A DNA stretch of 64,000 nucleotides from IMG/VR virus record IMGVR_UViG_3300025137_005045. One strand, given 5' to 3'. Made by a program: the position numbers and the translations under genes. The first letter of the stretch is position 1. Each line of letters begins with the position of its first letter. This DNA is from a virus (Duplodnaviria > Caudoviricetes). This document shows, piece after piece, positions 379 through 35,593 of this stretch. The notes beneath the pieces are model-generated. The model made no database searches. It had not been told where the DNA came from and was given only the letters and a program-made list of their open reading frames with translations.

Positions 379-861
379 ATGAAAATATTAGTATACATAC
401 TATTGGCTGTAAGTTTAAACATTTTGTTTATTGCTGGCGGTGGATTTGTAGGTACAGTAGTAGCACAACCAATGAATGATTTTACGTTCAAAAGTCCAGC
501 CTTTAACGGTAATGGATACTCCGCACACGTATTAACAATAGAAAATCAAGAATTTAGTCGTAAAAAAGCACTAGCTGAGAAGATCGAATCTGAATTAAAA
601 GACGCTGAGCGTGAAGCACAAAGCACTAATATTGCTAAGTTTATGAGTAACTTAGAATCTAGAATCTATGCACAAATATCACAAGATTTAGCTACAGCAA
701 TGTTTACAGACGATGAATCAAGTCCAACAAGTGGTACCTTAAGTTTTGAAGGTAATATTATTAACTGGAATAGGTCAGCAGATATTATCACCTTAGGGGT
801 CACAGACATTGTTGGAACAACAACCACAATTGAGATACCATTAGGTGATTTTACATTTTAA
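379..861 (+). CDS. csgF: Curli assembly protein CsgF-like
   Basis: Signal peptide then FTFKSPAFNGNG, like the CsgF F.NP.FGG N-terminus; directly upstream of csgG. Confidence 0.8.
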   Translation: MKILVYILLAVSLNILFIAGGGFVGTVVAQPMNDFTFKSPAFNGNGYSAHVLTIENQEFSRKKALAEKIESELKDAEREAQSTNIAKFMSNLESRIYAQISQDLATAMFTDDESSPTSGTLSFEGNIINWNRSADIITLGVTDIVGTTTTIEIPLGDFTF

Positions 862-2192
862 TGAAAATAATAATTATTTTATTGATGACTCTAACAATTT
901 TAGGTTGTGCAACAGGACAGGCTATAAAACAAACATATGATGTGCCAGTACTAATAGAGAAAAGCACTGCTAAAGAATTTGATACTATACCGCCTCCAGC
1001 ATTAGGTAAGATAGTTGTAGCAGTATACTCGTTTACTGACAAGACCGGACAAAGACGTCCAAGCAATACGCAGTCAAGTTTTAGTACAGCAGTTACACAA
1101 GGATCAGATGCTTTTTTACTTAAAGCACTTGGTGATGTAGGAAGAGGAAGATGGTTCACAGTGGTTGAACGTGGAGGACTGCAAAGTATAACGCAAGAAA
1201 GACAGATTATTAGACAAATGCGTGAAGCTTATGATGGAGTTGACGCAAAGAAATTAATGCCAATGAAGTTTGCTGGTATGTTGATAGAAGGTGGCATAAC
1301 AGGTTACGATACTTCAACAAGAAGTGGTGGTATGGGCATGCGTGTATTAGGCATAGGACCACAAACACAATTTAGTGAGGATATTATCACTGTAAGTTTG
1401 CGAGCAATAAGTGTTAACACCGGCGAAGTGATTGCCGCAGTTAATGTACAGAAAACAATATATTCTACAGCAGACAGTATAGCAGTATTAAAATTCTTCG
1501 ACAATGACACACAGATTTTTGAATTTGAATCGGGAATTACATTAAATGAGCCAGCAACATTGGCAGTTAAAACTACAGTCGAAGCGGCAGTGGTTGAATT
1601 AATTAAAGAAGGTGAGCGTAAGGATATATGGGACTACGGTGAATATCCTGAGACAGTAGAGATAGAGCCTACAATTGTTGAAGTGATAAAGGAAGTTGAG
1701 GTAGTAAGGGAAGTTGAGGTAATAAAGGAAGTTGAGGTAATAAAAGAAGTTGAAGTGATAAAAGAAGTTGAAGTGATAAAGGAAGTTGAGGTAATAAAAG
1801 AAGTGTATACTGAACTACCGCCACTACAGGAAGAAGAGTCTATGGCTACGGTACTCAGTGATAACATTGATAAAATAGTGGCACGTATGAAGGATGTAGA
1901 AGTGATCGACGAAACGGTGCTTGAAGAAATTGCACCACAAGACGAACTGACTGTAAGTGATTTACCGCCATTACAGGAAGAGGAGATTATAACTCCTGAT
2001 CTTTACTATGACAGTATAAAAGAAGAGTACACTGAACTACCGCCATTACAGGACGAGGAGTCTTTAATTTTAGAGCGTTACAATGATGATATCAGTGAAG
2101 ATATTGATAAAGTAGTGACACGTGTTCAGGATGAATTAGAAGAATATTATCAACGATGTTTAGAATATAATCATGAGGAGAACTGTCCGTAA
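861..2192 (+). CDS. csgG: Curli secretion channel CsgG-like lipoprotein with acidic repetitive C-terminal extension
   Basis: Lipobox ILGC; VAVYSFTDKTGQRRP..FSTAVTQG, WFTVVER, IEGGITGYD motifs. Confidence 0.9.
   Translation: MKIIIILLMTLTILGCATGQAIKQTYDVPVLIEKSTAKEFDTIPPPALGKIVVAVYSFTDKTGQRRPSNTQSSFSTAVTQGSDAFLLKALGDVGRGRWFTVVERGGLQSITQERQIIRQMREAYDGVDAKKLMPMKFAGMLIEGGITGYDTSTRSGGMGMRVLGIGPQTQFSEDIITVSLRAISVNTGEVIAAVNVQKTIYSTADSIAVLKFFDNDTQIFEFESGITLNEPATLAVKTTVEAAVVELIKEGERKDIWDYGEYPETVEIEPTIVEVIKEVEVVREVEVIKEVEVIKEVEVIKEVEVIKEVEVIKEVYTELPPLQEEESMATVLSDNIDKIVARMKDVEVIDETVLEEIAPQDELTVSDLPPLQEEEIITPDLYYDSIKEEYTELPPLQDEESLILERYNDDISEDIDKVVTRVQDELEEYYQRCLEYNHEENCP
1677..1802 (+). repeat. Seven 18-bp in-frame tandem repeats (VEVIKE) in csgG
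   Basis: GTTGA(A/G)GT(G/A)ATAAA(G/A)GAA x7, one copy encoding VEVVRE. Confidence 0.95.
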
Positions 2193-2252
2193 GTGATTTT
2201 TCAGACTTACAGGATAAAGTAGTAAAAATGCTTAATAAGCAAGGAAGGAAAA

Positions 2253-3164
2253 ATGAAATTTATTAAACTATTTGGAATGATGTTTCTTACGTTGTCAATG
2301 GCACATGCCGCTGACAATAGCATTTATATTGACCAAATTGGTAGTAGTTCTACCATTAATATAAAACAAGATGGATCAGGTAACAAAGTGTTTGGAGTAG
2401 GCGATTCTGAAGGAACTCCGGCCAAGTTTACAGGTTCATCGCAAACTGTTGATATTAGACAAGTGGGAGGTAGTAACATATTAGGTATTGATATGAACAC
2501 CACAGTCGTATCTGGTGTTGGTGTTGACCTCAAATACTACATCACAGGTTCGAACTCTGTAGCAAGTATTGATATCAATGGAGACGGCTTAGGAACAGCG
2601 GCTAACAATACCATTGACATTCAACAAACTGGTAACCTGAATGATTTAATCTTTGACTTACTAGGTACAGGAAATACAATTAATGCGGCAATGACAGGTG
2701 GTACTTTAAACGATCTTACTTTTGATATTGATGCTGATAGTTTAACTGTAGATGTTGCTGTTAGTGGAGGTGGCTCTAACAAAATTACATTAACACTTGG
2801 TTCAAGCAGTTCAGACATAGATATTACAACTGTCGGTGCTAGTAATCAAGTTACTTCTACACAAACTGGTGTAGGTGTATTTGACTTAGATGTCATTGCA
2901 AATAGCAGTAGTAACACAATCACAACTGTACAACGAGACGTTGGTAATAGTGGAACAGATATTAATATTACGTCCGCTGGATCTACCAATACAGTATCAA
3001 CTAGCCAAATTGGTTCCTCGGGTTCTTCAGGACATGAAATTGAAATAGATATTGCAGGAGCAAGCAACAACATAACAGTTACCCAGTCTGGAGGATTAGA
3101 AAATGATTCCAATATTGATATAACTGGTAGTAGTAATACTTGGACAATCACTCAGGAAGAATAA
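2253..3164 (+). CDS. Secreted curlin-repeat protein (CsgA/CsgB-like)
   Basis: Signal peptide ending AHA; many N-x-I-x-I-x-Q-x-G-x-x-N repeats; Gly/Ser/Thr/Asn-rich. Confidence 0.8.
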   Translation: MKFIKLFGMMFLTLSMAHAADNSIYIDQIGSSSTINIKQDGSGNKVFGVGDSEGTPAKFTGSSQTVDIRQVGGSNILGIDMNTTVVSGVGVDLKYYITGSNSVASIDINGDGLGTAANNTIDIQQTGNLNDLIFDLLGTGNTINAAMTGGTLNDLTFDIDADSLTVDVAVSGGGSNKITLTLGSSSSDIDITTVGASNQVTSTQTGVGVFDLDVIANSSSNTITTVQRDVGNSGTDINITSAGSTNTVSTSQIGSSGSSGHEIEIDIAGASNNITVTQSGGLENDSNIDITGSSNTWTITQEE

Positions 3165-3165
3165 A

Positions 3166-3336
3166 ATGCTTGAAGACGATGATGTTGTTATCATACACAG
3201 CTATCTAGGAGACGAGTCGTTATCGTTTGCAGGTTGGCTTAAGGTTGATCATAATATAGACGTTAACACTTTATCTTTAAAAGATCATGTTAAGTATCGT
3301 AAACTATGGACAAAAACTTCCCGCTATACTGGATAA
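3166..3336 (+). CDS. Small hypothetical protein (56 aa), not in ORF track
   Basis: ATG 1 nt after the upstream stop; fills the gap before FecR. Confidence 0.45.
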   Translation: MLEDDDVVIIHSYLGDESLSFAGWLKVDHNIDVNTLSLKDHVKYRKLWTKTSRYTG

Positions 3337-4424
3337 TATCAATGTTCCTTATAATGCCAACATTGGCATGGGGAGCCGTTGGAAAAATTTCTGCTCAACA
3401 GCATGATATAGGGAGCATTACTCGTAATAAAGAAGTACTCAAAGCTGATCTTAATGCAACGATAGAAATGCTTGATGCATTAAGAACTACTCAAGGCACT
3501 CTGGAAATAACTTTTAAAGATGACACAATAGTACAAATGACCGAAAGTGCCAGGATGACTGTTGATGATTTTGTTTATGATCCAAAGAACAAAGACGCAG
3601 GCAAATTAGCAATTAAAATAGCGGCTGGTACTGCCAGATATGCATCAGGACAAATTGCTAAAGACAAACCTCAAGCAGTCAAAATTAAAACTCCAACAGC
3701 AACAATATCAGTTCGTGGTACAGACTTTACAACAACAGTGGATGAGATTGGTGCTACTACAGTTATCTTATTACCTAGTTGTCCTTTTGGATGGGCATCT
3801 ATAGAAAGAGATTGTAAAACAGGTGCCATTGATGTTGAAAGCATGGGAGGTATTGTGTATATGGATAAACCATTTCAAGCCACTCGTGTTCCTAATCTAG
3901 ATTCTAAACCAACTCCTCCGGTTATTGTTGATTTGACAGAAGAAATGATTAAGAACATTCTTATTACTGGTACACCAAAAGAGATTGAAGCTGAAGAAGT
4001 TGGCCAGACTAATGTATCTGCATTAGATAATAATGCTCTTGATCAGGACCTGTTAGAAAATGAATTAGATAAAGCAGATGAACAATTGTATGTAAACAAA
4101 CTTAATCAAAACTTGTTAGAGAGAGACTTTCTGGTTAATGTGCTAGATATTTTAAATATGCAGTTAGCACTGGCACAAGAGAGAATACTATCTGTCTCAG
4201 AGAAGAATGAACTACTGCCTGATTTTATTCCTGACCAAGGTGTGACATTTACCACCGACGGTATAATAGTTGAATTGTGCATGGACACAACAGGTAGTGA
4301 CATAAGCTGTATTACAGTTCCTGAGAATCAAGAAACTACTATACGACAGATACAAGGTGCAGTTGATATAACCAACAGAGTAATTGATAATGGTACTACC
4401 ACCATTACCACGGAACAAAACTAA
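3306..4424 (+). CDS. FecR-domain periplasmic protein
   Basis: Signal peptide; LRTTQGTLEITFKDDTIVQMTESA, GTARYASG, KTPTATISVRGTDF motifs; true start may be 3342. Confidence 0.85.
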   Translation: MDKNFPLYWIISMFLIMPTLAWGAVGKISAQQHDIGSITRNKEVLKADLNATIEMLDALRTTQGTLEITFKDDTIVQMTESARMTVDDFVYDPKNKDAGKLAIKIAAGTARYASGQIAKDKPQAVKIKTPTATISVRGTDFTTTVDEIGATTVILLPSCPFGWASIERDCKTGAIDVESMGGIVYMDKPFQATRVPNLDSKPTPPVIVDLTEEMIKNILITGTPKEIEAEEVGQTNVSALDNNALDQDLLENELDKADEQLYVNKLNQNLLERDFLVNVLDILNMQLALAQERILSVSEKNELLPDFIPDQGVTFTTDGIIVELCMDTTGSDISCITVPENQETTIRQIQGAVDITNRVIDNGTTTITTEQN

Positions 4425-5773
4425 TGATTAGAATATTCACACTTGTATTTTTGTTGTTAATTATATCGAATTTTTTAACAACAAAAGCAGAGGCCGCAAC
4501 CGGACTAACTTATACAACTTTAGCTTGTGGGACCTCCTGGCCCTGCTCATTGACCGGTTCCGTTTTATCTACGGGAACTATTTCCACTGGAGACGTGAAT
4601 TTAAATTGGGGCAGTGGAGAAGTATTAGACTCTGGTAGAAGTGATTATGTTGTTGTAAAACTAGAAGGCTATTTTGTAATGCCAGGAACAGCAGGAACAA
4701 GTTATTCAGTAGAATTTACAAACCAAGATGATGATGGGTCAAGAACTATAATTGGTGGAACAACAGTCATTGATGATTGGTCTGGACTACACTCACCAGC
4801 AGACAGAAGTGGTACTATTACCTTAGTTGGTGGAACAACCTATTCATATCTGAGATATATGTCAGAATGGACTGGTGGTGCTGTATTAAGACAATTTTGG
4901 AAAATAGGTTCTGGCTCTAGAACTTATATGAATTTTGCAGACGACTTTACCACAACATCAAGTCCTGTAACATCAACAACCACCGGTACAAGTAGTGGTA
5001 TAAGTTCTAGTCAAGCAACTACAGTATCAACAGCAAGAACCAGAGCAACAGCGGCAAGTGCAGGTACTAACCCAGATAATTCTGTTTATATAGATCAAGC
5101 TGGTTCCAGTAATACTGTAGTGATTCTACAAGATGGTTCATCAGGTAATCATATACGAGGCATAGGAGTTGACAATGCATCTTTAGTAGGTGACTCCAAT
5201 GACATTGAGATTAAACAGGGTGCTGGTACATCAGGTGATGGAGTTAATTTAATTGAATTAATGGTTGATGGTGATACCAATGATCTAAAACTATATCAAG
5301 ATAGATACGACGATGGAACACCAGATGCAGACCCATCCGGTGATCATATCATTAAGCTGGATGTTGATGGTAATTTAAATGATATTGAAGTAATTCAACG
5401 AGCAAATGGTACAGTTGGTCATTTTGCTGAAATAGATATAACTGGCAATTCTAGTAATTTTGATATTCTACAAAAAGGACAATCCGAAAAACAATTGTTT
5501 ATAGATGTAACTGGTAATAGCAATATAATAGATGTTACACAACGAGACAGCTCATCTAAATTTGCGGATATAAAATTAATTGGAAATGGTCATGATGTGA
5601 CTGTACTACAAAAAGGAACAGGTGCTCATAACGCAACAATTGATTTAACTTTTGGTTCAGGAGCAAGCACTGTGGATTTAACACAACAAGGTAGTTCAAA
5701 TCAATCATATTCTCTAGAACAAATTTGTTACGATGTATCCGGGTGTTCAACTACAGTAACCCAAGGATATTAA
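4424..5773 (+). CDS. Secreted PA14 domain plus curlin-repeat protein
   Basis: Signal peptide; PA14-like NWGSG..V.LEGY..QDDDGSR..EWTGGA; Ser/Thr linker; C-terminal curlin repeats. Confidence 0.8.
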   Translation: MIRIFTLVFLLLIISNFLTTKAEAATGLTYTTLACGTSWPCSLTGSVLSTGTISTGDVNLNWGSGEVLDSGRSDYVVVKLEGYFVMPGTAGTSYSVEFTNQDDDGSRTIIGGTTVIDDWSGLHSPADRSGTITLVGGTTYSYLRYMSEWTGGAVLRQFWKIGSGSRTYMNFADDFTTTSSPVTSTTTGTSSGISSSQATTVSTARTRATAASAGTNPDNSVYIDQAGSSNTVVILQDGSSGNHIRGIGVDNASLVGDSNDIEIKQGAGTSGDGVNLIELMVDGDTNDLKLYQDRYDDGTPDADPSGDHIIKLDVDGNLNDIEVIQRANGTVGHFAEIDITGNSSNFDILQKGQSEKQLFIDVTGNSNIIDVTQRDSSSKFADIKLIGNGHDVTVLQKGTGAHNATIDLTFGSGASTVDLTQQGSSNQSYSLEQICYDVSGCSTTVTQGY

Positions 5774-5983: not shown

Positions 5984-7030
5984 ATGACTAAAAAAACTTT
6001 AACCACTTTTTATGCTTTAGCATATCTATTAATATCAGGAGGAGTAATTGCACTTGCTAACCCTTCTTGGAATATAATATCAGTATTGATTGCTATACCA
6101 ATACTATATGGAATATTTGAAACTAAATTCTTTACGAATGATAGCAAAGTAAAATGGGCTCAGGCGTTCGTATATATTGGCAGTATAACAACATTAATAT
6201 TTCTATTTGATTGGACAATGTTATTATTAGGAATTGTTGCTGGATGGGTATTATTTGGAGTTGGAGTTAGTATATGTTTACATAAGTGGGCTTCACACAA
6301 GACATTTATACCTAAAAATAAATTTTGGAAAATAATTATTTTATTTTTTGGAACATTATGCACATTAGGTAGCACTATTAGTTGGGCCGCTGGACATAGA
6401 GAACACCATAGATTTACTGATAAGGATGGTGATCCGCATCGACCTGCAGGAAGTTTATGGCATAAAATTAAAGTTTACTTTTATTATTTCCCAACATATC
6501 CAATTAGCCCTATGTTAATTAAAGACCTTACAGTAGATCGTGATCATAAATGGTTTCATAGAAATTATTATAAAATCATATATGCGTACATATTAGGTTT
6601 GTTTTTAATTAATCCTAGCTATGCAGGATACTTTTATTTTATACCAGCGTTATATGTGTTTACAGGCATAAGTTGGGTAACAGTAATAGCACATATACCA
6701 ACCAACGGACGTTTTGGATTTAGAAAAGATACCTGGCGTATATACAAAAGTGATGATTACACATATAACAGTCACATTTGGCAATTCCTGTTAATGGGAG
6801 AAGGATATCATAATACACATCATAGTAGTCCATGGTTATGGAATAATGCTATATTACCTGGAGAGTTTGATATATCTGCAACAATTATTAAACATATAGG
6901 TATACCTAACGACAAACAACCTAAAGAATGGGATAGTGTTCGTCGAGGGCAGGAAATGTTTGATGAAATACAAGCAGAAGTTGCTAAAAATGAACAAGAC
7001 GATAGTCTAGCTGTACCAAAAGCAACATGA
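5984..7030 (+). CDS. Membrane fatty-acid desaturase (delta-9/Ole1-like)
   Basis: His boxes HKWASH, HREHH, GEGYHNTHH; hydrophobic segments. Confidence 0.9.
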   Translation: MTKKTLTTFYALAYLLISGGVIALANPSWNIISVLIAIPILYGIFETKFFTNDSKVKWAQAFVYIGSITTLIFLFDWTMLLLGIVAGWVLFGVGVSICLHKWASHKTFIPKNKFWKIIILFFGTLCTLGSTISWAAGHREHHRFTDKDGDPHRPAGSLWHKIKVYFYYFPTYPISPMLIKDLTVDRDHKWFHRNYYKIIYAYILGLFLINPSYAGYFYFIPALYVFTGISWVTVIAHIPTNGRFGFRKDTWRIYKSDDYTYNSHIWQFLLMGEGYHNTHHSSPWLWNNAILPGEFDISATIIKHIGIPNDKQPKEWDSVRRGQEMFDEIQAEVAKNEQDDSLAVPKAT

Positions 7031-7752
7031 GCAAACCTATTGCATTAGTAGGTCATAGAGCTGGAATGGATTTAATAATTGATATTACTGACGCTATGGG
7101 ACTAGAGATTGCTGGTATTTTTGACAAATATTTTTACGGTAATACAGACAGTACAGAAGGTATTCCTTTTATTGGAAACGAAGAAGAAATTACAGAAGAT
7201 GATATTGAAAAATATAATTTTGTTTTAACATCTAATTATGTTGGTCATGCAAAGTTAACTAATTATGAACACAATGGTGACAATCTAAGACAACGTCGTA
7301 TTAAAATATTTAAAGATCGCAATTTACCTACAGCTAATCTTATTCATCCTAATTCATATGTAGGAGATAAGACACATATTGGATCAAGTGTAATCATTGG
7401 TAGAGACTGCTATGTACGAGCTAATTCACATATAGGTGATTTTTGCTTTCTTGATAGCGGAGCGGCAGTGGCTCATGATGTACATCTTGGGGAAAATGTA
7501 ATTATAACTCCTTATAGTTTCGTTGCTGGTTTTGTTAATATTGGAAATAATGTAATGATTGGAGCAGGATCAAAGATAGTAAATGGTTATAGTGATAGAT
7601 CATTAAACATTGGAGACAATGTAAAAGTTATGGCCGGTTCAACAGTTTTTAAAGATGTGCCAGAAGGGAAATTTGTTACAAACACAGGTAAAATTTTACG
7701 AAGAATTGATTTAAAAAAGGAAAAGGAAAAGGAAAATGGATTACAAGATTAA
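7027..7752 (+). CDS. PglD/NeuD-like sugar acetyltransferase (hexapeptide repeat)
   Basis: N-terminal Rossmann-like region; NLIHP..; left-handed beta-helix repeats. Confidence 0.8.
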
Positions 7753-9022
7753 AGACTTAGATCTAGCAGACTGGGGTCATAAAGAAATAGCTATCGCAGA
7801 AACAGAAATGCCAGGATTAATAGCTGTTAGAGAAGAATTTAAGGATCAACAACCTTTAAAAGGTGCCCGAATTACAGGTAGCTTACACATGACAGTGCAA
7901 ACTGCTGTGCTAGTTGAAACTTTGGTTGCGTTAGGTGCTAGTGTACGCTGGAGTTCATGTAATATCTTTTCAACACAAGATCATGCCGCGGCCGCATTAG
8001 CAGAACAGGGAATTCCTGTATTTGCTTGGAAAGGCGAAACAGAAGAAGAGTATTGGTGGTGTATAGAACAAACACTAGAAGGACCCGATGGATGGAAACC
8101 AAATATATTACTAGACGACGGTCACGATCTAACTGGTTATATTATGGACAATCGTCCTGACTTACTGGATGATATTGTTGGAGTAACGGAAGAAACAACT
8201 ACAGGCATACACAAGATATTGGAACGTATTGAAAAAGGTAAAATGCTATTACCAGCTATCAATGTTAATGATTCTGTAACCAAAGCTAAGTTTGATAACT
8301 TGTATGGTTGTCGTGAAAGTTTAGTTGATGGTATTAAGCGTGCCACTGATGTTATGATAGCAGGTAAGACTGCTGTGGTAGCAGGCTACGGTGATGTTGG
8401 TAAAGGTTCAGCACAGGCATTGAAAGCATTATCAGCTCAGGTATGGATAACTGAAGTAGATCCAATTTGTGCTTTACAAGCCGCAATGGAAGGATTCAAA
8501 GTAGTCACCATGGACTATGCTAAAGATAAGGCAGACATCTTCGTAACAGCAACAGGCAACGTTGATGTTATTACTAAAGAACACATGATAGCAATGAAAA
8601 ACAATGCCATTGTTTGTAATATTGGACACTTTGATAGTGAAATTGATATTGCTGGTGTAAGTGATTTTGGATGGGATGAAATTAAACCACAAGTAGATCA
8701 TGTTACCTTGCCGAGTGGTAATAAAATTATTATTCTGGCAAGAGGTAGATTGATTAATCTAGGTTGTGCCACAGGACATCCTAGTTATGTTATGTCAAAC
8801 TCATTTACTAATCAAGTGCTAGCACAAATAGAAATGTTTAATAATCCTGACAGCTATGAAACAGGCAAACTCTATCTACTACCTAAACATCTAGATGAAA
8901 AAGTAGCAGAGCTACATCTGGCTAAAGTAGGTGCAGAATTAACCCGTTTAACGGATAAACAAGCTGAATATATTTCAGTTCCTGTTAACGGCCCTTATAA
9001 GGTGGAAACATATAGATATTAA
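7736..9022 (+). CDS. ahcY: S-adenosyl-L-homocysteine hydrolase
   Basis: [53 protein letters not shown]. Confidence 0.98.
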
Positions 9023-9103
9023 CACTATATGTTGTGCTTTTTTTAAACCCAGCCACTGGATTACGATAAATATTACAGTAATATTACATAGGAAACATTT
9101 TAT

Positions 9104-9883
9104 ATGAAAGCATTAAAAATAGCAGTATTATCAACAGTATTTTTAACGTCGGCTGTTGTAGCTGACGAACATAGCAGAACAAAAGCTACAGTAGATACTA
9201 GTAATAACTGGAACATATCAGTTACAGCTACTAGTGAGTATCTATTTCGTGGTCTAAAACAAACTCAAGGTGACCCTGCACTACAAGCTAGTATAGATTA
9301 TAACTTTGATGGTGGACTGTATGCCGGTGCATGGGCAAGTACAGTTAAATGGACCGAAGAAGGCTACATGAATAACAACGATGTAGAAACTAACTTTTTT
9401 GTAGGTTATTCAGACACACTTGGACAAACAGGTATTGGATATGACGTAGGTGTATTACAATACTATTATCCAGGTACTGTTAAAAATGGTGTTGCAGATA
9501 CTGACGCAACAGAAATTTATGCTGGTGTTAACAAAGACATACTTGGCATGAATTGGGCTGTTAAATATTCTCAAGTTGTCTCAGATGATGCTTGGGGAAT
9601 TGGAGATGCTGATGGTAGTCAATATGTTGAAGCAAATCTAACAGTTCCATTAACAGAAAAACTTTCAGCACTTGCTCATGTAGGTCGCTCTGAGTTTGAC
9701 GGTAATGGCAATGACGTATATGATTATACTGACTGGTCACTTGGTGCAGAATATGCAGTAGGCGATTATGTTACAGTAGGTGCTGGTTACTCAGACACAA
9801 ATACTAACGAAGCAAACTGGACCCTTAATGGTGAAGACCAAGGTAAAGGACAAACACTTGCTTGGTTAACATACGCATTCTAA
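9104..9883 (+). CDS. TIGR02001/TorF-family outer-membrane beta-barrel
   Basis: Signal peptide; SEYLFRGLKQT..PALQ..DY, YAGAWAS; terminal Phe. Confidence 0.85.
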   Translation: MKALKIAVLSTVFLTSAVVADEHSRTKATVDTSNNWNISVTATSEYLFRGLKQTQGDPALQASIDYNFDGGLYAGAWASTVKWTEEGYMNNNDVETNFFVGYSDTLGQTGIGYDVGVLQYYYPGTVKNGVADTDATEIYAGVNKDILGMNWAVKYSQVVSDDAWGIGDADGSQYVEANLTVPLTEKLSALAHVGRSEFDGNGNDVYDYTDWSLGAEYAVGDYVTVGAGYSDTNTNEANWTLNGEDQGKGQTLAWLTYAF

Positions 9884-9902
9884 ATTAAATTAGAATAAAT
9901 TG

Positions 9903-9928
9903 AAAGCACCTTTGGGTGCTTTTTTTTT
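9903..9928 (+). terminator. Rho-independent terminator
   Basis: AAAGCACC-TTTG-GGTGCTTT plus T run. Confidence 0.85.
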
Positions 9929-10036
9929 GAAAAAGAAACGATACAATAAAGATTACAGTTAGATTACAAAAATGCAATTAGTGCTTGCTTTTTCTTAAAA
10001 TCCTAGTAAAATATAGTTTTAAGTAATTAAATACAA

Positions 10037-10318
10037 TTGATGAAAACATTCAAATACTATTTCAACAAAACTATCATCACACTTTGTATTCTCTTCTTTT
10101 TCGTAATATGGTATCAAGTACTTTCTAAAATAATATGTAATTCATTTTGTGAAGTTGAGCAAGAAGTGCAAGGAGTTGTTATAGCATATGAGGATATGAC
10201 TCCTGAACAACGTCGAGCAGAATTTGAAAAACTAAAAGCACAAAGGACAGCAGAAAATGAAAAAAATAGTAGTATTACTAACACTACTGGCAGTGTCAAC
10301 ATTAGCTCTAGCAGATAA
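10037..10318 (+). CDS. Hypothetical membrane-anchored protein
   Basis: ORF with N-terminal TM helix. Confidence 0.55.
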   Translation: MMKTFKYYFNKTIITLCILFFFVIWYQVLSKIICNSFCEVEQEVQGVVIAYEDMTPEQRRAEFEKLKAQRTAENEKNSSITNTTGSVNISSSR

Positions 10319-10820
10319 ACCAGGATACTATTCAGCTATTAAGTTTAGTATAGAAGAAAGTAATACTGGAGGAAGTGACAGTACTAAATGGGCAGTCAAA
10401 TATGGTAAGCACATTAACAAACATCTTGATGCTGAATTATATACAAGAACAAAAGACAAAGACTCTGGTAGTAATGATACAAGAGTAGAAGCCGCAGTGA
10501 TTGGCAAGTACAAACTAACAGATGATTGGTCAACTAGTCTTAGAGTTGGTGCTGGTAACAAATATACACGAACTGATGACTTTGGTTATTGGACAGTTAC
10601 ACCAGCAGTAAAATATAAAATTACTGACAAGCTAAGTGCTAAACTTGGATATAGATTTCGTGACGCATTTGAAACAGAAAGACAACAGAATGACCAAACA
10701 ATTAAGTTAGGCATTGGCTACAAGTTAACCAGTGATGTATCTCTAGGTGCTGGCTATGACTGGAAACGTGGTGACAGTGATGCTGACGGTTTTGGAGTTG
10801 GTTTTAAATTCGAATTTTAA
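10257..10820 (+). CDS. Small outer-membrane beta-barrel/porin-like protein
   Basis: Signal peptide; alternating amphipathic strands; C-terminal GFKFEF. Confidence 0.75.
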   Translation: MKKIVVLLTLLAVSTLALADKPGYYSAIKFSIEESNTGGSDSTKWAVKYGKHINKHLDAELYTRTKDKDSGSNDTRVEAAVIGKYKLTDDWSTSLRVGAGNKYTRTDDFGYWTVTPAVKYKITDKLSAKLGYRFRDAFETERQQNDQTIKLGIGYKLTSDVSLGAGYDWKRGDSDADGFGVGFKFEF

Positions 10821-10863
10821 TAATATTGTATAATGGTAGGTGTTGAGTACTAAATAATATTAC

Positions 10864-10910
10864 AACGTTCATCCCACTGGGACGGAAGTAGGCATAAGCT
10901 GAAGGAACGC
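10864..10910 (+). ncRNA. Glutamine riboswitch (glnA motif)
   Basis: P1 CGTTC/GAACG, P2 TCCC/GGGA, CGGAAGTAG, P3 GGC/GCT, TGAAG: matches the glnA three-way-junction consensus. Confidence 0.85.
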
Positions 10911-10934
10911 TTCTTGTTAAAAGGAGGTAGCTTT

Positions 10935-11129
10935 ATGTATGCTAAAGAAAATAATACATCCACCATATTAAAAATTGCAACATTGTTAGATCTTGAAGTA
11001 AAAGAAGTAACTAAATTTCTTGAACTAATGCTAGACGGATACAACTTCACAGATGCCCTTAACGGTTGTCATTTGACCAGAGAGGACTGTGAACTAGTAT
11101 TAGCAGAACTTAAGAAAAGAAAAAAATAA
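10935..11129 (+). CDS. Small hypothetical protein (64 aa) downstream of the glutamine riboswitch
   Basis: SD AAGGAGG at 10921-10927 before ATG 10935. Confidence 0.75.
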   Translation: MYAKENNTSTILKIATLLDLEVKEVTKFLELMLDGYNFTDALNGCHLTREDCELVLAELKKRKK

Positions 11130-11144
11130 TATGGTACAACTTAG

Positions 11145-11170
11145 AAAAGCACTTTTAGGAGTGCTTTTTT
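11145..11170 (+). terminator. Rho-independent terminator
   Basis: AAAAGCACT-N6-AGTGCTTTT plus T run. Confidence 0.85.
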
Positions 11171-11242
11171 ATTGTCTATAATAAATACCTTTAAGCACAA
11201 GACCAAAAGTCTTATTTTACTAATTTTTCAAAAAGGTAATAT

Positions 11243-11353
11243 ATGGCCAATAAGAATTGCTACTGGAGACCAGAGACAGATGATGATATGGAATGGTTAA
11301 ACAGCCTGGCGAAACCCATAAAACCCATAAAACCCACTGATCAAAAGAAGTAG
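11243..11353 (+). CDS. Small peptide (36 aa), not in ORF track
   Basis: ATAAATA at 11181, SD AAGG; MANKNCYWRPETDDDMEWLNSLAKPIKPIKPTDQKK. Confidence 0.5.
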   Translation: MANKNCYWRPETDDDMEWLNSLAKPIKPIKPTDQKK

Positions 11354-11386
11354 ACATATCTAACTATAGACTATATAATATAACTT

Positions 11387-12145
11387 ATGATAGTCATAAC
11401 AGGTTACGGTTACGTAGGAAAAGCCATCGAATCGGCACTAATTCCACACGTTGATATAGCTATTGTTGATCCAATGATCAACGATAAACGTGTGTCTGAC
11501 TTTGATGCTGAAGCAGTAATCGTAGCTGTATCAACACCCAACACACTAGACGGTAGTTGTAACATGCAAAACGTATTTGATGTATTGGCAGATGTACCCG
11601 AAGATGTTCCTGTACTAATTAAATCAACTATATCAATAGAAGGATGGAACGAACTGACTGATAAGTATCCTGATCATAAGATTACATTTAGTCCAGAGTT
11701 TCTAAGAGCTAACACTGCAATCGAAGACTTTCACAATCAGGACTATGTATTTTTAAGTGGTGATAATCATAAGTATTGGGAAAAACTATTCTTAGATACT
11801 ATTAAGAAACCAAGTCAGATTTATTCAGCTGAAGAACTTATATTAGCTAAACTATTTCGGAACAGTTTTCTAGCAACCAAAGTTACATTCTTTAATCAGG
11901 TCAATGACTTATGTCAACGATTAGAGTTAGACTACGAGAAAGTCAGAAAGATTATCACAGATGATCAGCGTATAGGTACTGGCCATTCACAAGTTACAGA
12001 AGAACGTGGATATGGTGGACACTGCTTACCTAAGGATACAGAAGCACTATTAAAAAGTGCATTGCAACATGGATGTAGTATGAGCTTAATTCAAGAAGCA
12101 ATTCGATATAATAAACATATTAAGAAAAAAACTAATAAATATTGA
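11387..12145 (+). CDS. ugd: Short UDP-glucose/GDP-mannose dehydrogenase-family protein
   Basis: GYGYVG, FSPEFLR, KLFRNSFLATKV.F.N, GYGGHCLPKD. Confidence 0.85.
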   Translation: MIVITGYGYVGKAIESALIPHVDIAIVDPMINDKRVSDFDAEAVIVAVSTPNTLDGSCNMQNVFDVLADVPEDVPVLIKSTISIEGWNELTDKYPDHKITFSPEFLRANTAIEDFHNQDYVFLSGDNHKYWEKLFLDTIKKPSQIYSAEELILAKLFRNSFLATKVTFFNQVNDLCQRLELDYEKVRKIITDDQRIGTGHSQVTEERGYGGHCLPKDTEALLKSALQHGCSMSLIQEAIRYNKHIKKKTNKY

Positions 12146-12911
12146 TATGCTTACAACAATACTTTTTTTCGCTCTTTGTTATCACATACTATGGGCAACG
12201 TTCTCTATAGGTGTTCATCGACAACACATGCACACATATTGGAAATTAAATCCTGTGTTAGATCATTTATTTAGATTTATATTATGGCTAACTTGGGGAG
12301 CATTGAATTTTAAAAATGCAATACCAAATTTAGTAGCTCAGCATCGAAAACATCATGCACAAAGTGATCAATGGAACGATATTGATAATTATGATCCTGT
12401 AAGTCCTCATGTGTTTAGTTTAAGAAAGCTGTTAGATTTTTCAAAAATTCGTCCAGGAACACAATACTGGATAAATCCAAAAGATATATCAATTTGGGGT
12501 AAAGGTGCAACATCCTATGATGATTGGATAGAAAACAACATATATGTAAAATATCCTACATCAGGATTAACCATATTATGGATAATTGCTACTTTTTTAT
12601 TTGGATGGCCTGGTTTTATAATAGGTGGTTTATATAAATTTTCAATCAAAAAGGTAGTAGCATTCCATGCGGCATGTTTGCACGTAGTTGGATATAGAAC
12701 TCAAAAAGCTAAACTGTCTTCTGATAGATCGTTGAATACATTTCCGTTATCATTAGTAACTGCTGGAGAAGGATTGCATGGTAATCATCATGATAATTGT
12801 CGTCCAAGTAATTTTTCATTTCACTGGTGGGAATTAGATTTGGGTTATTGGTATGCTGTTGGTTTATCTAAGCTAAAACTTTTAAAATTTATCTAAAGAT
12901 ACAGAAGCACT
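12030..12911 (+). repeat. 19-bp direct repeat (18/19 identical) bracketing the ugd 3' end and a desaturase
   Basis: CTAAGGATACAGAAGCACT 12030-12048 vs CTAAAGATACAGAAGCACT 12893-12911. Confidence 0.8.
12147..12896 (+). CDS. Second membrane fatty-acid desaturase
   Basis: His boxes HRQHMH, HRKHH, GEGLHGNHH. Confidence 0.85.
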   Translation: MLTTILFFALCYHILWATFSIGVHRQHMHTYWKLNPVLDHLFRFILWLTWGALNFKNAIPNLVAQHRKHHAQSDQWNDIDNYDPVSPHVFSLRKLLDFSKIRPGTQYWINPKDISIWGKGATSYDDWIENNIYVKYPTSGLTILWIIATFLFGWPGFIIGGLYKFSIKKVVAFHAACLHVVGYRTQKAKLSSDRSLNTFPLSLVTAGEGLHGNHHDNCRPSNFSFHWWELDLGYWYAVGLSKLKLLKFI

Positions 12912-13051
12912 GTACAGTAATAGGTAAATCTTATTATCCCCATTTAAACATTCAACAAGCAAAACCTGTTAAAAATCAAATTACTATAGTATAATTAAAT
13001 AAGTACAATACTATGAGAAAGGAATTAATTATGGAAAGAGAAGAATAAATT

Positions 13052-14272
13052 ATGGATACTTTTTTTCTTGGCATTACACTTTTTACTTTGATTGTGTTGT
13101 CACTTGTAACGATAATTATTTTTGCTCGAAGTCAACTTGTCCAATCAGGTGAAGTTAATATTACTATCAATGGCGAAAAAAATATAAAAGTGCCTGCTGG
13201 TGGAAAGTTACTACAGGCCTTAGCTGGAGAAAAATTATTTGTTCCATCAGCTTGTGGAGGTGGTGGTACTTGTGCTCAGTGTAAGGTTAAAGTTCATTCA
13301 GGAGGAGGATCCATTCTCCCAACTGAAGAAGGACATATCAGTAAACGAGATGCGTCTTGTGGAGATAGGCTGTCATGTCAGGTAGCAGTAAAGCAGGACA
13401 TGGAAATTGAAGTACCTGAGGAAGTTTTTGGAGTCAGAAAGTGGGAATGTAAAGTATTAAGTAATGATAATGTTGCTACATTTATTAAAGAATTAATTAT
13501 AGAGCTCCCCAAAGGTGAAGATGTAAATTTTAAAGCAGGTGGATATATTCAAATTGAAGCACCTAGCTATAAACTTTCATATAAGGACTTTGATATTGGG
13601 AAGGAATATCACGAGGATTGGGATAGATTTAAGATATGGGATGTTACCTCTGAGGTAAATGAACCAATTGAAAGAGCATACTCTATGGCAAATTATCCTG
13701 AAGAAAAGGGTATAGTAATGCTAAATGTTCGAATTGCAACTCCACCTCCAGGTTCATCTGGAATTCCAGCTGGAAAAATGTCTTCTTATATTTTTAATTT
13801 GAAAAAGGGTGATGCAGTTACTATATCAGGACCCTTTGGTGAGTTCTTTGCACGTGAAACCAAAAAAGAAATGATTTTTATTGGTGGAGGTGCTGGTATG
13901 GCACCAATGAGAAGTCTTATTTTTGATCAGTTTAGGAGAATAAAATCTGACCGAAAAGCATCATTCTGGTATGGAGCGAGATCGAAAAAAGAAATGTTTT
14001 ATGTCGATGATTTTGATCAGATTCAAAAAGATAATGAAAACTTTTCTTGGCATGTTGCTTTGTCCGATTCACTTCCGGAAGATAAATGGAAAGGGCATAA
14101 GGGATATATTCATAATATACTTTTTGAACAGTATTTAAAAGATCATCCAGCTCCAGAGGATTGTGAGTACTACCTATGTGGGCCACCTATAATGAATCAA
14201 TCAGTGGTTAATATGTTAATAGATCTGGGAGTCGATCGTGAAGATATTTTACTTGATGATTTTGGTGGGTAG
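13052..14272 (+). CDS. nqrF: Na+-translocating NADH:quinone oxidoreductase subunit F
   Basis: N-terminal TM anchor; [12 protein letters not shown] 2Fe-2S motif; RAYSMAN; [11 protein letters not shown]; YLCGPP; C-terminal LDDFGG. Confidence 0.97.
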
Positions 14273-14295
14273 TTGAATATAAGGAAAAATTTAAA

Positions 14296-14550
14296 ATGAA
14301 TACAAAAGTATTAAGATTTACAGCCTCATGGTGCGAGCCATGTAAGGCATTAGCAAAAACAATTGAAGACGCTGATATTGAATTACCAATTGAAGTTATT
14401 GATATAGACAAAGAAGCCTCTAGAGCTATGAAATTTCAAATACGCTCTGTACCTACAATAGTTATTGTTGATGAGAACGGTGAGGAACTTCGACGACAAA
14501 TCGGAATGATGACATTGTCACAGTTTGAGCATTTTGTTAAAAATGTTTAG
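14296..14550 (+). CDS. Thioredoxin
   Basis: WCEPC active site; IRSVPT. Confidence 0.9.
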   Translation: MNTKVLRFTASWCEPCKALAKTIEDADIELPIEVIDIDKEASRAMKFQIRSVPTIVIVDENGEELRRQIGMMTLSQFEHFVKNV

Positions 14551-14555
14551 TTGCT

Positions 14556-14574
14556 AATCATGATAATCATTATG
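14556..14574 (+). promoter_or_regulatory. Fur-box-like site upstream of pqqA
   Basis: AATCATGATAATCATTATG matches 16/19 of GATAATGATAATCATTATC. Confidence 0.5.
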
Positions 14575-14603
14575 TTTTTTAATTAATTATATGTTATTAT
14601 TAT

Positions 14604-14698
14604 AATAAGTAATAGCAGTAGCAACTGTTGTTACTTGAAGCAGATCTCAAATTGGACTTGTGGTAACACTCTCCAATGATTTGGTTAGCCGACTTATT
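14604..14698 (+). promoter_or_regulatory. Structured 5' leader of pqqA (candidate cis-regulatory RNA)
   Basis: Stems AGTAGCAA/TTGTTACT, CAAAT-TGGA/TCCAA-ATTTG with inner GTG-GTAA-CAC, outer AATAAGT/ACTTATT. Confidence 0.4.
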
Positions 14699-14726
14699 AA
14701 AAAACTTTTTATAAAGGACTATTATT

Positions 14727-14798
14727 ATGTGGACTAAACCTCAAGCAACAGAAATGCGTTTTGGTTTTGAAGTAACTATGTACGTAATGAACAAGTAA
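14727..14798 (+). CDS. pqqA: PQQ precursor peptide PqqA (23 aa), not in ORF track
   Basis: MWTKPQATEMRFGFEVTMYVMNK with the E-x-x-x-Y core; SD AAAGGA; own terminator. Confidence 0.95.
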   Translation: MWTKPQATEMRFGFEVTMYVMNK

Positions 14799-14852
14799 TT
14801 GTTTGTTAGTATATAAAACTTTAAACTAGCATTACACTGTTTAAAAATTTAG

Positions 14853-14878
14853 AAAGCACTCATTTATGGGTGCTTTTT
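14853..14878 (+). terminator. Rho-independent terminator after pqqA
   Basis: AAAGCACTC-N6-GGGTGCTTT plus T run. Confidence 0.85.
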
Positions 14879-14988
14879 ATTTGACCAACAAATATACATT
14901 ATATTATAATATGAGCAAGTATTCTATAAATACTTTTACTAGTTCACAAGACTAGTAATTTTTAAAAATCCCAAAAGGAGAAGAAAAA

Positions 14989-15141
14989 ATGTCAGTAGAA
15001 ACAAAAATAGACTGGAATGAAGAAGATAAAGAAGCAAAAGAAGATAAAGAAATGACAGCTAAAAAACAGAGTGAAGAATTTTCTAAATCTAAATCAGAAG
15101 AAATGGCAAGAAGAGTTGTCGCTTTTAGTGACTGCGGTTAA
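14989..15141 (+). CDS. Small acidic peptide (50 aa), not in ORF track
   Basis: TATAAATA at 14925, SD AAGGAG; ends VAFSDCG. Confidence 0.6.
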   Translation: MSVETKIDWNEEDKEAKEDKEMTAKKQSEEFSKSKSEEMARRVVAFSDCG

Positions 15142-15162: not shown

Positions 15163-17214
15163 ATGCCTACAAAATTACTGACCAAGGTGTTAGTTTCACC
15201 CTGGACAGCTCTTATTACTCTCACGATCATATTGTACATAGGCGTTCAACAACCTCAATTCATTGAAAGTGTTAAGTTAAGATACTTTGATACCTTAATC
15301 ACAAGCCAACCAGAACAACAAACAACTATATCAACAGTTAACATTGACGAATCCGCATTAGAAAAATATGGACAATGGCCTTTTAGTCGTGATATCTACG
15401 CAGACATAATTAAGGACTTGTATGAACGTGGTGCTGGACTAGTGGTATTCAATGTGCTTATGCCTGAACAGGATAGACTGGGCAAAGATTCAGTGCTAGC
15501 TAAAACAATGGAAGAATATCCAGTTGTACTTCCGAACTATGGTAGTGATAAAACAAAGAATATGCCACGTAATCCCGGTGCTGTTTCGATAGGTGACCCT
15601 GAAGGCAAAGTAGTGGAGTATGATGGCATTGTGGCAAGTATACCTGAACTAGAAAATCTAGCTTACGGTACAGGTATCGTAACAACATTCCCTGAAGTAG
15701 ATGGCGTTACTCGTAGATTGCCAATGGTCATTAAGAGTGGAGACACACTATATCCAAGTATGGGTTTAGAAGTTCTACGTATACTAGCAGGTGATCCTAG
15801 TTTCCAGATTAAATTCTCAGACATAGGTATTGATAAGTTACGTGTACCACAGTTTGGTATTTTATCAACAGACCCTATTGGGCGTGTATGGATTGATTAT
15901 CAGCAACGAGCTCAAGCATACAGTTTAACTGAACTTCCAAATACATTTGACAGTGGAATAGTTATTGTGGGTACGAGTGCTCCGGGTATTAGTAATCCAA
16001 TATCAACCAGTCGTGGCGAAGTATGGCCGCAAGATATGCAGGCCTCAGTGATAGCTACACTAGCAAGTGGTATCAATATCCAACGTCCAGACTGGGCATC
16101 GGGTAGCGAACTACTTGCTCTGGTAGTTTTAAGTATTATATTACTGTTTTTAACACGTTGGGTATATGTGGGCTTAGGAGTAGGAATAGTAGCACTAGCG
16201 GCGATTGTGCCGGTCACACAGTACCTTTATGCAACATATTTGTTCTTGTTTGATGCTACATTAATGTTAGGTGGATTAACAATTATACTGCTACATGCTT
16301 ACGGTGTTAAGTTTGTTTCAGAGTTCTTACAGAAGCAGGCAATCAAGAAACAGTTTGCTGGTTATGCGTCGCCGACGGTGGTTAAACTGCTACAAGAAAA
16401 TCCAGCATTAATTAAAGATGGTATGAAGCGGGAGATTTCAATTTGCTTTTCAGACTTACGTGGATTTACACCCTTAGGTGAAAGTTTTGGTGATGACGTA
16501 AAAGGGCTTACACAAATTATGAATAGCTATATGGATGCCATTACACAACCTATTCTGGATAGTAACGGTATGGTTATCAAGTATATTGGTGATGCTAGTA
16601 TGCACGTACATAATGCTCCCAAAGATGATCCTAATCATGCTAAAAGTGCTGTTCAAACAGGACTTAACATGATTGAAGCTGTTAGAAAGTTCAATGATAA
16701 AATTGTAGCCAAAGGCCGTCCACCGATAGGTATGGGTGCTGGCATCAACACCGGACTTGGATATCTAGGAGAAATGGGCTCAACAGCAAGACATAGTTAT
16801 GATGTACTAGGTGATGCTGTATCAACAGCGGCACGTATTGAAAGCAAGTGTAAAGAATACGGATGTTTATTATTGGTAGGTGAAGCCACTTACGATAAAA
16901 CCAAGGATGACTTCTTTTATCTGCAGGTAGACGAACTAGCAGTCAAAGGTAAAACAGTCGGCATTAGAATATACACAGTTTTAGATACTCCATTCAATGC
17001 GTATTACAATAGTCGAAAAAAACATCAAGAAATGTATGCATCATATCAAGCACAAGAGTTTGATAAAGCAATTAAAATGTGTCAAAATTTAAAGTCACAC
17101 TTTGAAGGACAAATGACTAGCTATTACGACATGTGGATTGAACGTTGCGAGTATATGCTAACACAAGATTTGCCTAAAGATTGGAACGGAGTCTTTATAG
17201 CAACTACCAAATAA
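15163..17214 (+). CDS. CHASE2-domain class III adenylate/guanylate cyclase
   Basis: NIDESALEKYGQWPFSR (CHASE2); TM block; FSDLRGFT, KYIGDA, GAGINTG, YDVLGDAVSTAARIES. Confidence 0.95.
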   Translation: MPTKLLTKVLVSPWTALITLTIILYIGVQQPQFIESVKLRYFDTLITSQPEQQTTISTVNIDESALEKYGQWPFSRDIYADIIKDLYERGAGLVVFNVLMPEQDRLGKDSVLAKTMEEYPVVLPNYGSDKTKNMPRNPGAVSIGDPEGKVVEYDGIVASIPELENLAYGTGIVTTFPEVDGVTRRLPMVIKSGDTLYPSMGLEVLRILAGDPSFQIKFSDIGIDKLRVPQFGILSTDPIGRVWIDYQQRAQAYSLTELPNTFDSGIVIVGTSAPGISNPISTSRGEVWPQDMQASVIATLASGINIQRPDWASGSELLALVVLSIILLFLTRWVYVGLGVGIVALAAIVPVTQYLYATYLFLFDATLMLGGLTIILLHAYGVKFVSEFLQKQAIKKQFAGYASPTVVKLLQENPALIKDGMKREISICFSDLRGFTPLGESFGDDVKGLTQIMNSYMDAITQPILDSNGMVIKYIGDASMHVHNAPKDDPNHAKSAVQTGLNMIEAVRKFNDKIVAKGRPPIGMGAGINTGLGYLGEMGSTARHSYDVLGDAVSTAARIESKCKEYGCLLLVGEATYDKTKDDFFYLQVDELAVKGKTVGIRIYTVLDTPFNAYYNSRKKHQEMYASYQAQEFDKAIKMCQNLKSHFEGQMTSYYDMWIERCEYMLTQDLPKDWNGVFIATTK

Positions 17215-20842: not shown

Positions 20843-22075
20843 ATGAACATTGGATTCATTGGGCTAGGCAAACTAGGACTAGATTGTGCAGAAGTAATGG
20901 CAGAAAAGCATAATGTGAGAGGATACGACGTAGAACCTAGAACTAGCCATTCAGTTGCAGTAACAACTCCTGAGAATACAATTAATCAATCAGATTGGTT
21001 GTTTATTGCAGTACCCACTCCACATCAAGAAGGATATGATGGGTCAGTACCATCAAGTCATATGGAACCTAAGGACTTTGGTCATGAATATGTATATGAT
21101 GCCATTGACAACATCAACAGATACGCTAAAGAAAGCAAAAAAGTTGTGCTAATATCAACAGTATTACCTGGAACAACACGCAAACATTTTATTACCAGAT
21201 TAGATAGCAAGCATCAGTTTTTATACAACCCTTATTTGATTGCTATGGGTTCAGTTAAGTGGGATATGGTGAATCCAGAGATGGTTATGATTGGCACTGA
21301 GGATGGCAATCCTAACGCACTAGCAAAAGAACTAATTGATATATACCAGACAATAATGGAAAACGATCCACGTTACGAAATAGGCACGTGGGATGAATGT
21401 GAAGCAATTAAAATATTTTATAACACCTTTATTTCAGCCAAGGTTGGCTTGGCTAACATGGTACAGGACTTTGCTATGAAGATAGGGCATATTGACGTAG
21501 ACGTTGTTACAAATGCTCTGGCTAAGTCAGACATGCGTATTATGGGACCTAAATATATGACAGCAGGTATGGGAGATGCTGGTGCTTGCCACCCGAGAGA
21601 TAATATTGCACTTAGATGGCTAGCACAGGAGTATGAAGTTGGCTATGACATGTTTGACACTATCATGAGTGCTAGAGAAGTACAAGCTAAAAACTTAGCC
21701 AAATATCTGGTAGATGCGGCCAAACAAAATTTGATTGACGGTCCTATCGTTATACATGGTAAAGCATATAAGCCAGATGTGGAATACTGTATTGGATCCT
21801 ATTCAACTCTGGTAGGATTTTATGTTAAAGAACTTGGATCTGAGGTTGTTTACATTGATCCGTTAGCAGATGACAAAACCGAATGTGTTGATAATGCTGA
21901 GCGTGCTGTTGTATTGATGGCCCACAACAGACAGATCACATATGGTTATACCGGCGAGCAAGAAAAACAAAACTTTTACTTTGATATTAAACCTGGATCA
22001 ATAGTTGTTGATCCTTGGAGACAACTTGAATCTACCGACGCTTACGAAGTTTTACACTACGGAAACACACGATAA
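20843..22075 (+). CDS. ugd: UDP-glucose/GDP-mannose dehydrogenase-family protein
   Basis: GFIGLGKLG, YNPYLIAMG, KIFYNTFISAKV, GDAGACHPRD. Confidence 0.9.
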   Translation: MNIGFIGLGKLGLDCAEVMAEKHNVRGYDVEPRTSHSVAVTTPENTINQSDWLFIAVPTPHQEGYDGSVPSSHMEPKDFGHEYVYDAIDNINRYAKESKKVVLISTVLPGTTRKHFITRLDSKHQFLYNPYLIAMGSVKWDMVNPEMVMIGTEDGNPNALAKELIDIYQTIMENDPRYEIGTWDECEAIKIFYNTFISAKVGLANMVQDFAMKIGHIDVDVVTNALAKSDMRIMGPKYMTAGMGDAGACHPRDNIALRWLAQEYEVGYDMFDTIMSAREVQAKNLAKYLVDAAKQNLIDGPIVIHGKAYKPDVEYCIGSYSTLVGFYVKELGSEVVYIDPLADDKTECVDNAERAVVLMAHNRQITYGYTGEQEKQNFYFDIKPGSIVVDPWRQLESTDAYEVLHYGNTR

Positions 22076-35524: not shown

Positions 35525-35593
35525 TCAAAGCCACTTGCGTTTTAAGACAAATGATCATATAATTTTATTATATAAAATACGATAGGAATAATT

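Follow-up and report, generated by a model that had tools for sequence, protein, structure and literature searches.

What is a 23-residue precursor peptide of PQQ doing in the genome of a virus? The question is raised by a 72-nt open reading frame (14727-14798, plus strand) in a 64-kb stretch of Caudoviricetes DNA, which is the whole of the DNA analysed and is called the window here. A first-pass annotation had read this ORF as a stand-alone pqqA through which the phage would supply only the consumable substrate of PQQ synthesis to a methylotrophic host. Our main reading, to which we give a probability of about 0.7, is that the ORF is a functional pqqA acting as an AMG of a marine jumbo phage with a Methylophilaceae host, and that it feeds PQQ synthesis in this host.

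The ORF runs from ATG to TAA (23 codons) and its translation is exactly the peptide of the first-pass annotation. The PqqA identity proposed for it is borne out by two curated profiles. Pfam PF08042 scores 43.6 bits with its entire 19-position model aligned (cut-off 21.1) and the NCBIfam equivalog TIGR02107 scores 39.3 bits (cut-off 20), which for both models is about twice the curated cut-off. The 10 kb of the window listed hold 131 ORFs of at least 20 amino acids, and with E about 1e-11 the match is far beyond chance even when the many window ORFs of this size are allowed for. The leader part of the peptide contains Trp2 and Pro5, both typical of leaders recognized by PqqD, and the glutamate and tyrosine of the E-x-x-x-Y motif, on which the earlier claim relied, are Glu15 and Tyr19 (E15-V-T-M-Y19), the pair that is cross-linked. 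The gene has the properties of a small-peptide gene of 20-40 amino acids, namely its own start, Shine-Dalgarno sequence and stop. The Shine-Dalgarno sequence is the one noted before, AAGGA at 14714-14718 (plus strand), 8 nt 5′ of the ATG. At the level of sequence, the ORF is confirmed as a real, unannotated pqqA gene.

The terminator claimed downstream of pqqA is upheld in part. RNAfold predicts a 13-bp hairpin (14850-14879) followed by TTTTTATTT. This terminator-like hairpin and T-run together occupy 14850-14882 (plus strand), with a G+C core at 14856-14873, and an 87-nt stretch that includes the hairpin has a folding z of -4.9. A scan for consensus terminators, however, lists no site downstream of pqqA. 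The hairpin and U-run are a structurally plausible predicted terminator, which RNAfold supports and the consensus scan does not. Upstream, the region at 14567-14726 (plus strand) is conserved in a sibling phage, IMGVR_UViG_3300025120_009955 (G008 hereafter), with 79% nucleotide identity over 164 nt while the neighbouring proteins are far more diverged. No match to this region was found in the host loci and other phages compared. It contains a 13-bp hairpin at about 14607-14636 and may represent a promoter, a leader or the terminator of the preceding thioredoxin gene.

The gene stands alone in the window. A tblastn search with PqqB, PqqC, PqqD and PqqE from a Methylotenera pqqA-B-C-D-E operon, verified with NCBIfam, found no pqqB-E in the 64 kb (best E = 0.19), and the best match is a generic radical SAM gene of the window. 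Three radical SAM genes are present: two of the N-terminal-twitch family NF033640 (34394-35524 and 37303-38601, plus strand; NCBIfam), and a third which adjoins the clamp loader gene and matches generic families only (56668-57576). These genes were considered as pqqE candidates and rejected, as they match NF033640 or generic families and not PqqE. The two NF033640 genes bracket ClpP and a 374-aa ORF (34394-38601, plus strand). Likewise, no PQQ-dependent (methanol) dehydrogenase was found in the 64-kb window, and no pqqE in four viral records searched. The absence of pqqB-E reported earlier, and the idea that only the substrate is carried, hold for these 64 kb, which are part of a phage genome probably larger than 200 kb.

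The genomic setting of pqqA is a 9-kb accessory (AMG) island (5984-15141, plus strand). Its left flank is a curli-like module of CsgG, curlin-repeat, FecR and PA14 proteins (379-5773, plus strand; Pfam) and its right flank a gene for a CHASE2-adenylate/guanylate cyclase (15163-17214, plus strand; Pfam). The island contains genes for two desaturases, a hexapeptide transferase, an AdoHcy hydrolase and two outer-membrane proteins, a glutamine riboswitch (RF01739; 10864-10913, plus strand; 60 bits against a gathering score of 35), an FNR-like reductase with matches to 2Fe-2S, FAD and NAD domains (13045-14272, plus strand), a thioredoxin gene (PF00085; 14296-14550, plus strand) and, directly downstream of the latter, pqqA. 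In the nearest relatives, L247 and L284, the island is missing and the curli module is located immediately 5′ of the cyclase. Relatives of the cyclase occur in 325 IMG/VR stretches, on contigs of up to 357 kb, and homologues of the curli module adjoin it in 16-51 of 80 related viral loci. The clamp loader (phrog_168) finds its best matches in PA5oct-type and other jumbo phages (up to 57.6% identity), and the window contains a phage endonuclease, PhoH, ClpP and NT5C as further phage markers. Megablast of positions 5-25 kb against isolate phages gave no match.

Independent assemblies reproduce this arrangement. An ENA contig of 74.5 kb is 99.97% identical to the window over 21 kb, and a contig from a second sample reaches 99.2% identity over a length of 10.9 kb, with no mismatch (100%) in the pqqA region (14551-14990). 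Such contigs span thioredoxin, pqqA and cyclase, and one of the contigs with this locus is of the 0.2-1 Mb class. In four further marine studies, contigs (Logan, DNA assemblies) cover the island at 95% identity or more and end at the pqqA ORF, as expected of a short repeat common to hosts and many phages. The sibling G008 (72 kb, 20% complete according to CheckV) has the same order as the window: curli module, island, thioredoxin, pqqA, cyclase. Identity between the two phages is about 85-87% for CsgG, 62% for the cyclase and 47% for the thioredoxin protein. Their pqqA genes differ at three codons, two of them synonymous and one non-synonymous, and that of G008 has its own, different hairpin and T-run in the equivalent place. 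In addition, the G008 island encodes a 624-aa PQQ-dependent dehydrogenase of the methanol/ethanol family (TIGR03075, 608 bits; L334 6990-8864) about 6 kb upstream of pqqA. Since the flanks on both sides are conserved in jumbo-phage contigs, the locus is assembled independently and the sibling keeps the order, pqqA is to be placed, on its sequence context, inside the DNA of a marine jumbo phage.

The gene is not confined to this phage. A search of viral genomes, which had been proposed as a check, was performed by tblastn with the window peptide against 50,697 phage records and matched 12 of them. Nine are isolates with Methylophilales or Methylophilaceae hosts (Venkman, MEP301, MEP401, MEP402, P19250A and four Melnitz genomes), so that every cultured phage of Methylophilaceae matched in this search carries pqqA, and one is an uncultured spring podovirus. 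The remaining two matches are weak (CAKLQF020000010 and CAKLQH020000055, Acinetobacter phage MD-2021a; 72% over 18 aa, E = 0.05) and may represent either a further phage pqqA or host DNA within a draft assembly. Each of six inspected phage records has a complete PqqA ORF of 23-24 aa with a Shine-Dalgarno sequence and many synonymous differences, and the peptides of the isolate phages are 77-96% identical to that of the window. In none of the inspected isolate GenBank records is pqqA annotated as a gene. It lies within an unannotated gap in Venkman, MEP301, P19250A and MEP402, whereas in the Melnitz record MZ577097 (7961-8069) and in record MW202481 (2067-2195) a 'hypothetical protein' called on the other strand overlaps it.

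A degenerate DNA pattern for the core EMRFGFEVTMY extended the survey to at least 120 IMG/VR contigs. An exact match to the pqqA coding sequence of the window was not found in IMG/VR. The 127 viral copies among the matches listed are all intact and comprise 116 unique DNA sequences. Invariance of the 11 core codons is circular in this set since the pattern fixed them, and independent support for a conserved core comes from the tblastn matches. The positions left free by the pattern are informative: Trp2, Pro5 and a stop as codon 24 are shared by all 232 unique sequences (116 viral and 116 bacterial, among the matches listed), and in the viral copies listed the residues T3, A7, T8, V20, N22 and K23 hardly change although their codons do. 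A Shine-Dalgarno-like motif occupies the expected position in 126 of the 127 viral loci among these matches. AGA is the Arg11 codon of 36 of the 116 viral copies and of none of the 116 bacterial ones (again among the matches listed), a codon shift which suggests long residence of pqqA in phage genomes. The pattern of substitutions reveals purifying selection on the viral peptide, acting at the protein level and not at the DNA level.

On the bacterial side, the first-pass annotation had proposed a likeness to the PqqA of Methylophilaceae and had taken it as a hint of a methylotrophic host. Both points are corroborated. The core pattern, applied to GTDB with one genome per species, gave at least 120 loci, and those among the matches listed belong almost exclusively to Methylophilaceae or to unnamed Burkholderiales/Nitrosomonadales MAGs, one being a probably mis-binned Acidovorax MAG. 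A single substitution (Q6 for A6) separates the window peptide from the peptide at 26 Methylophilaceae loci among these matches. PqqA with the same 'VMNK' tail is encoded by the first gene of the pqqABCDE operon in Methylotenera and others, and by orphan copies as well; a phage AMG is expected to have a close homologue in the metabolism of the host lineage, and here this homologue includes the operon copy. Five Methylophilaceae genomes contain 3-7 scattered pqqA copies each, with one pqqC and one pqqE, in agreement with the 3-12 copies alongside a single pqqBCDEFG described for this family (PMC4109929). On a 1.3-Mb Methylopumilus chromosome and in a 1.2-Mb marine MAG, no pqqA copy is adjacent to pqqCE. 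The sequence type appears specific to Methylophilaceae and their cultured phages, and pqqA alone predicts a Methylophilaceae methylotroph as the likely host. Because DNA of the window was found in marine metagenomes of 16 studies, this host is most likely a member of the marine OM43 clade.

How would such a gene act? The pqqA locus can be seen as a self-contained cassette made of the conserved upstream region, the Shine-Dalgarno sequence, 23 codons and the hairpin with its U-run, from which the peptide would be produced during infection. In the bacterial pathway, PqqD binds the PqqA leader and presents the glutamate and tyrosine to the radical SAM enzyme PqqE (PMC10906245). Host PqqD would bind the N-terminal leader of the phage peptide in the same way, host PqqE would cross-link Glu15 and Tyr19, and host PqqB and PqqC together with peptidases would finish the product to PQQ. 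Each PQQ uses up one peptide and the enzymes are reusable, so a phage would need to bring the consumable part only. The precursor supplied by the phage could then keep up or raise PQQ for a periplasmic XoxF-type methanol dehydrogenase which powers the cell.

Several published observations bear on this scheme. In a methylotroph, stand-alone copies of pqqA rank with the most expressed, and PqqA peptide added to cell extract is turned into PQQ (PMC9851590). The engineering reports cited in that article describe limited gains only from pqq gene overexpression, as far as they are related there. In OM43 the top transcript is xoxF (PMC5120137). We also found short contigs on the pqqA ORF (14726-14801) in four marine metatranscriptomes, with a k-mer depth in the thousands versus tens for the neighbour gene. 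The flanks of these deep contigs are unlike those of the window, and the RNA therefore comes from other pqqA loci and not from the window copy. The contigs show that certain pqqA loci are abundant in RNA libraries.

A wider proposal is tentative, and in our estimate slightly more likely to fail than to hold: that pqqA is a signature auxiliary gene of Methylophilaceae phages, gained and kept by at least six unrelated lineages (the jumbo phages, T4-like Melnitz, the Zobellviridae MEP401/402, Venkman, MEP301 and the siphovirus P19250A), that precursor supply limits PQQ energy metabolism in infected methylotrophs, and that the gene can serve as a simple marker for host prediction, one overlooked by standard annotation.

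Other explanations of the locus deserve consideration. One is host contamination, which the first-pass annotation had already named as a danger, or else a chimeric assembly or a prophage flank, by which a bacterial pqqA region would have been joined to phage DNA. By their gene names (CsgG, outer-membrane proteins, AdoHcy hydrolase, desaturases) many genes in 1-26 kb of the window look cellular, the Logan contigs of other runs break off at the pqqA ORF, and the GC content of streamlined Methylophilaceae is the same as that of the window (PMC10580990), so that composition cannot separate phage from host. However, genes conserved in jumbo phages flank the island on both sides, the stretch from thioredoxin through pqqA to the cyclase is spanned by ENA contigs of other samples (99.2-100% identity), and a diverged sibling phage has the same gene order. 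Moreover, the FNR-like neighbour has an identity of only about 30% with proteins of Methylophilaceae, no tRNA was found in the window, which shows no break in GC (flat at 32-38%) or in skew and has nearly all genes on one strand, and contig ends at pqqA are what a short shared repeat would produce. Contamination and chimerism are for practical purposes excluded. A neutral hitch-hiker, that is a promoter-ORF-terminator repeat which recombines between host copies and phages without benefit to the latter, is somewhat less improbable, though still unlikely. The unit is compact and self-contained, dispersed pqqA copies are numerous in hosts, the insertion place varies among phages, often in gaps between diverging or converging genes, and pqqA is absent within 6 kb of the cyclase in 77 of 80 clade relatives. 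Against mere hitch-hiking stand the intactness of all 127 viral copies listed, their synonymous-biased variation and near-universal Shine-Dalgarno motif, and the phage-type AGA codon with the long residence that it indicates. Furthermore, the position is kept between phages whose cyclases are merely 62% identical, and the gene is retained in phages of about 35-45 kb, where space is tight.

Alternatively, the peptide might have another use, as a substrate of phage radical SAM enzymes, as a decoy for PqqD/E or as homology for recombination with host pqqA. Two of the three radical SAM proteins of the window have twitch/SPASM-type domains as found in peptide maturases, and Coutinho et al. linked phage radical SAM genes to PQQ (PMC7678222). 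The radical SAM genes of the window, though, are at least 20 kb from pqqA and have no PqqE match, pqqA is present in small methylophages (35-44 kb), and a search of four viral records yielded no pqqE. At conserved positions the peptide is essentially identical to operon-encoded host PqqA, which a decoy need not be, and conservation at the protein level rather than the DNA level speaks against a role in recombination. We regard this set of uses as improbable, a little more so than neutral hitch-hiking. As the ORF is complete and is conserved as a protein, a role of pqqA as an attachment site was rejected; a lytic jumbo phage would also have no need of such a site.

Taken together, the results support the interpretation of the first-pass annotation, whose functional part, the feeding of host PQQ synthesis by a phage-encoded precursor, is inferred and agrees with all observations made. 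This main reading has a published antecedent. Coutinho et al. 2020 (Microbiome 8:163, PMC7678222) described PqqA in the T4-like phages VP_266/VP_139 of Lake Baikal, which have 35% GC, methanol dehydrogenase, AdoHcy hydrolase and radical SAM genes and predicted Methylophilaceae hosts, and proposed that PQQ is boosted for the methanol dehydrogenase. The idea of a phage pqqA is thus not new. Judged by the published description, the phage of the window resembles the Lake Baikal phages in being large, with about 35% GC, pqqA without pqqB-E, an AdoHcy hydrolase and radical SAM genes, and its relative G008 shares with them a PQQ-dependent dehydrogenase. It differs in that it is marine and has no methanol dehydrogenase in its 64 kb, and its clamp loader is nearest to PA5oct-type jumbo phages. 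In the paper collection searched, no report of phage pqqA besides Coutinho et al. 2020 (PMC7678222) was found, and the papers on the isolates Venkman, MEP301, MEP401/402 and Melnitz leave it unmentioned. Two points are added to the published case: pqqA recurs in unrelated methylophage lineages, usually unannotated, and it has a conserved place in a phage accessory island.

Comparison with other systems further defines the gene. Like the unlinked multi-copy pqqA of Methylophilaceae (PMC4109929), that of the window encodes the same peptide type and stands alone with its own Shine-Dalgarno sequence and predicted terminator. In contrast to these host genes it is virus-encoded, shows the phage codon shift (AGA for Arg11) and has an upstream region common to the sibling phage only and not to the compared host loci. 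The cultured methylophages share with the phage of the window a complete PqqA ORF with a Shine-Dalgarno sequence, but belong to unrelated lineages of 35-142 kb. Cyanophages carry psbA (D1), a consumable, fast-turnover part of the host energy machinery for which the host supplies the rest. By analogy phage pqqA might play a comparable part, with the difference that PqqA is a consumed cofactor precursor and not a structural subunit.

The locus is of interest beyond the single phage. OM43 and related Methylophilaceae are major methanol consumers in the sea and in lakes, where their PQQ-dependent XoxF ranks with the most abundant transcripts and proteins. Should phages replenish the one component that PQQ synthesis uses up, rates of C1 oxidation would change on infection, and PQQ supply would be a control point of methylotroph energy metabolism. 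The gene is shorter than the length limits of most gene callers, and AMG surveys undercount it, as judged from its being missing or mis-stranded in the inspected methylophage GenBank records. The family-specific sequence of pqqA could serve as an inexpensive indicator of the host of uncultured viral contigs. With phage-host pairs in culture, for instance Melnitz or Venkman with the OM43 strain H5P1, the hypothesis can already be tested.

Some minor observations concern the surroundings of the gene and its relatives. In the jumbo-phage contigs L248 and L258 (98 and 111 kb), a variant PqqA is encoded at about 11410 (plus strand), 3.4 kb downstream of the cyclase and not upstream. It has Asp9 and Ile16 in place of Glu9 and Val16, and the tail VMNR. 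A pattern search of IMG/VR found no close relative of the FNR-like gene of the island. Four metatranscriptome assemblies contain a relative with about 96% identical DNA, whose flanks diverge right at the gene borders and so point to a second genome context. The glutamine riboswitch (10864-10913) lies directly 5′ of a small ORF (10914-11129), and ARAGORN found no tmRNA beside it; the Melnitz paper describes a phage glutamine riboswitch 5′ of a tmRNA. A 252-aa ORF (11387-12145, plus strand) encodes a partial UDP-glucose dehydrogenase with a partial N-terminal and a central domain, of which a fuller 410-aa paralogue is found at 20843-22075. Published marine myophages are described as having curli pore genes only, without fibre subunits. 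In the curli-like module of the window, the products of 2253-3164 and 4424-5773 show curlin repeats or weak similarity to CsgA, and that of 4424-5773 also has a PA14 domain.
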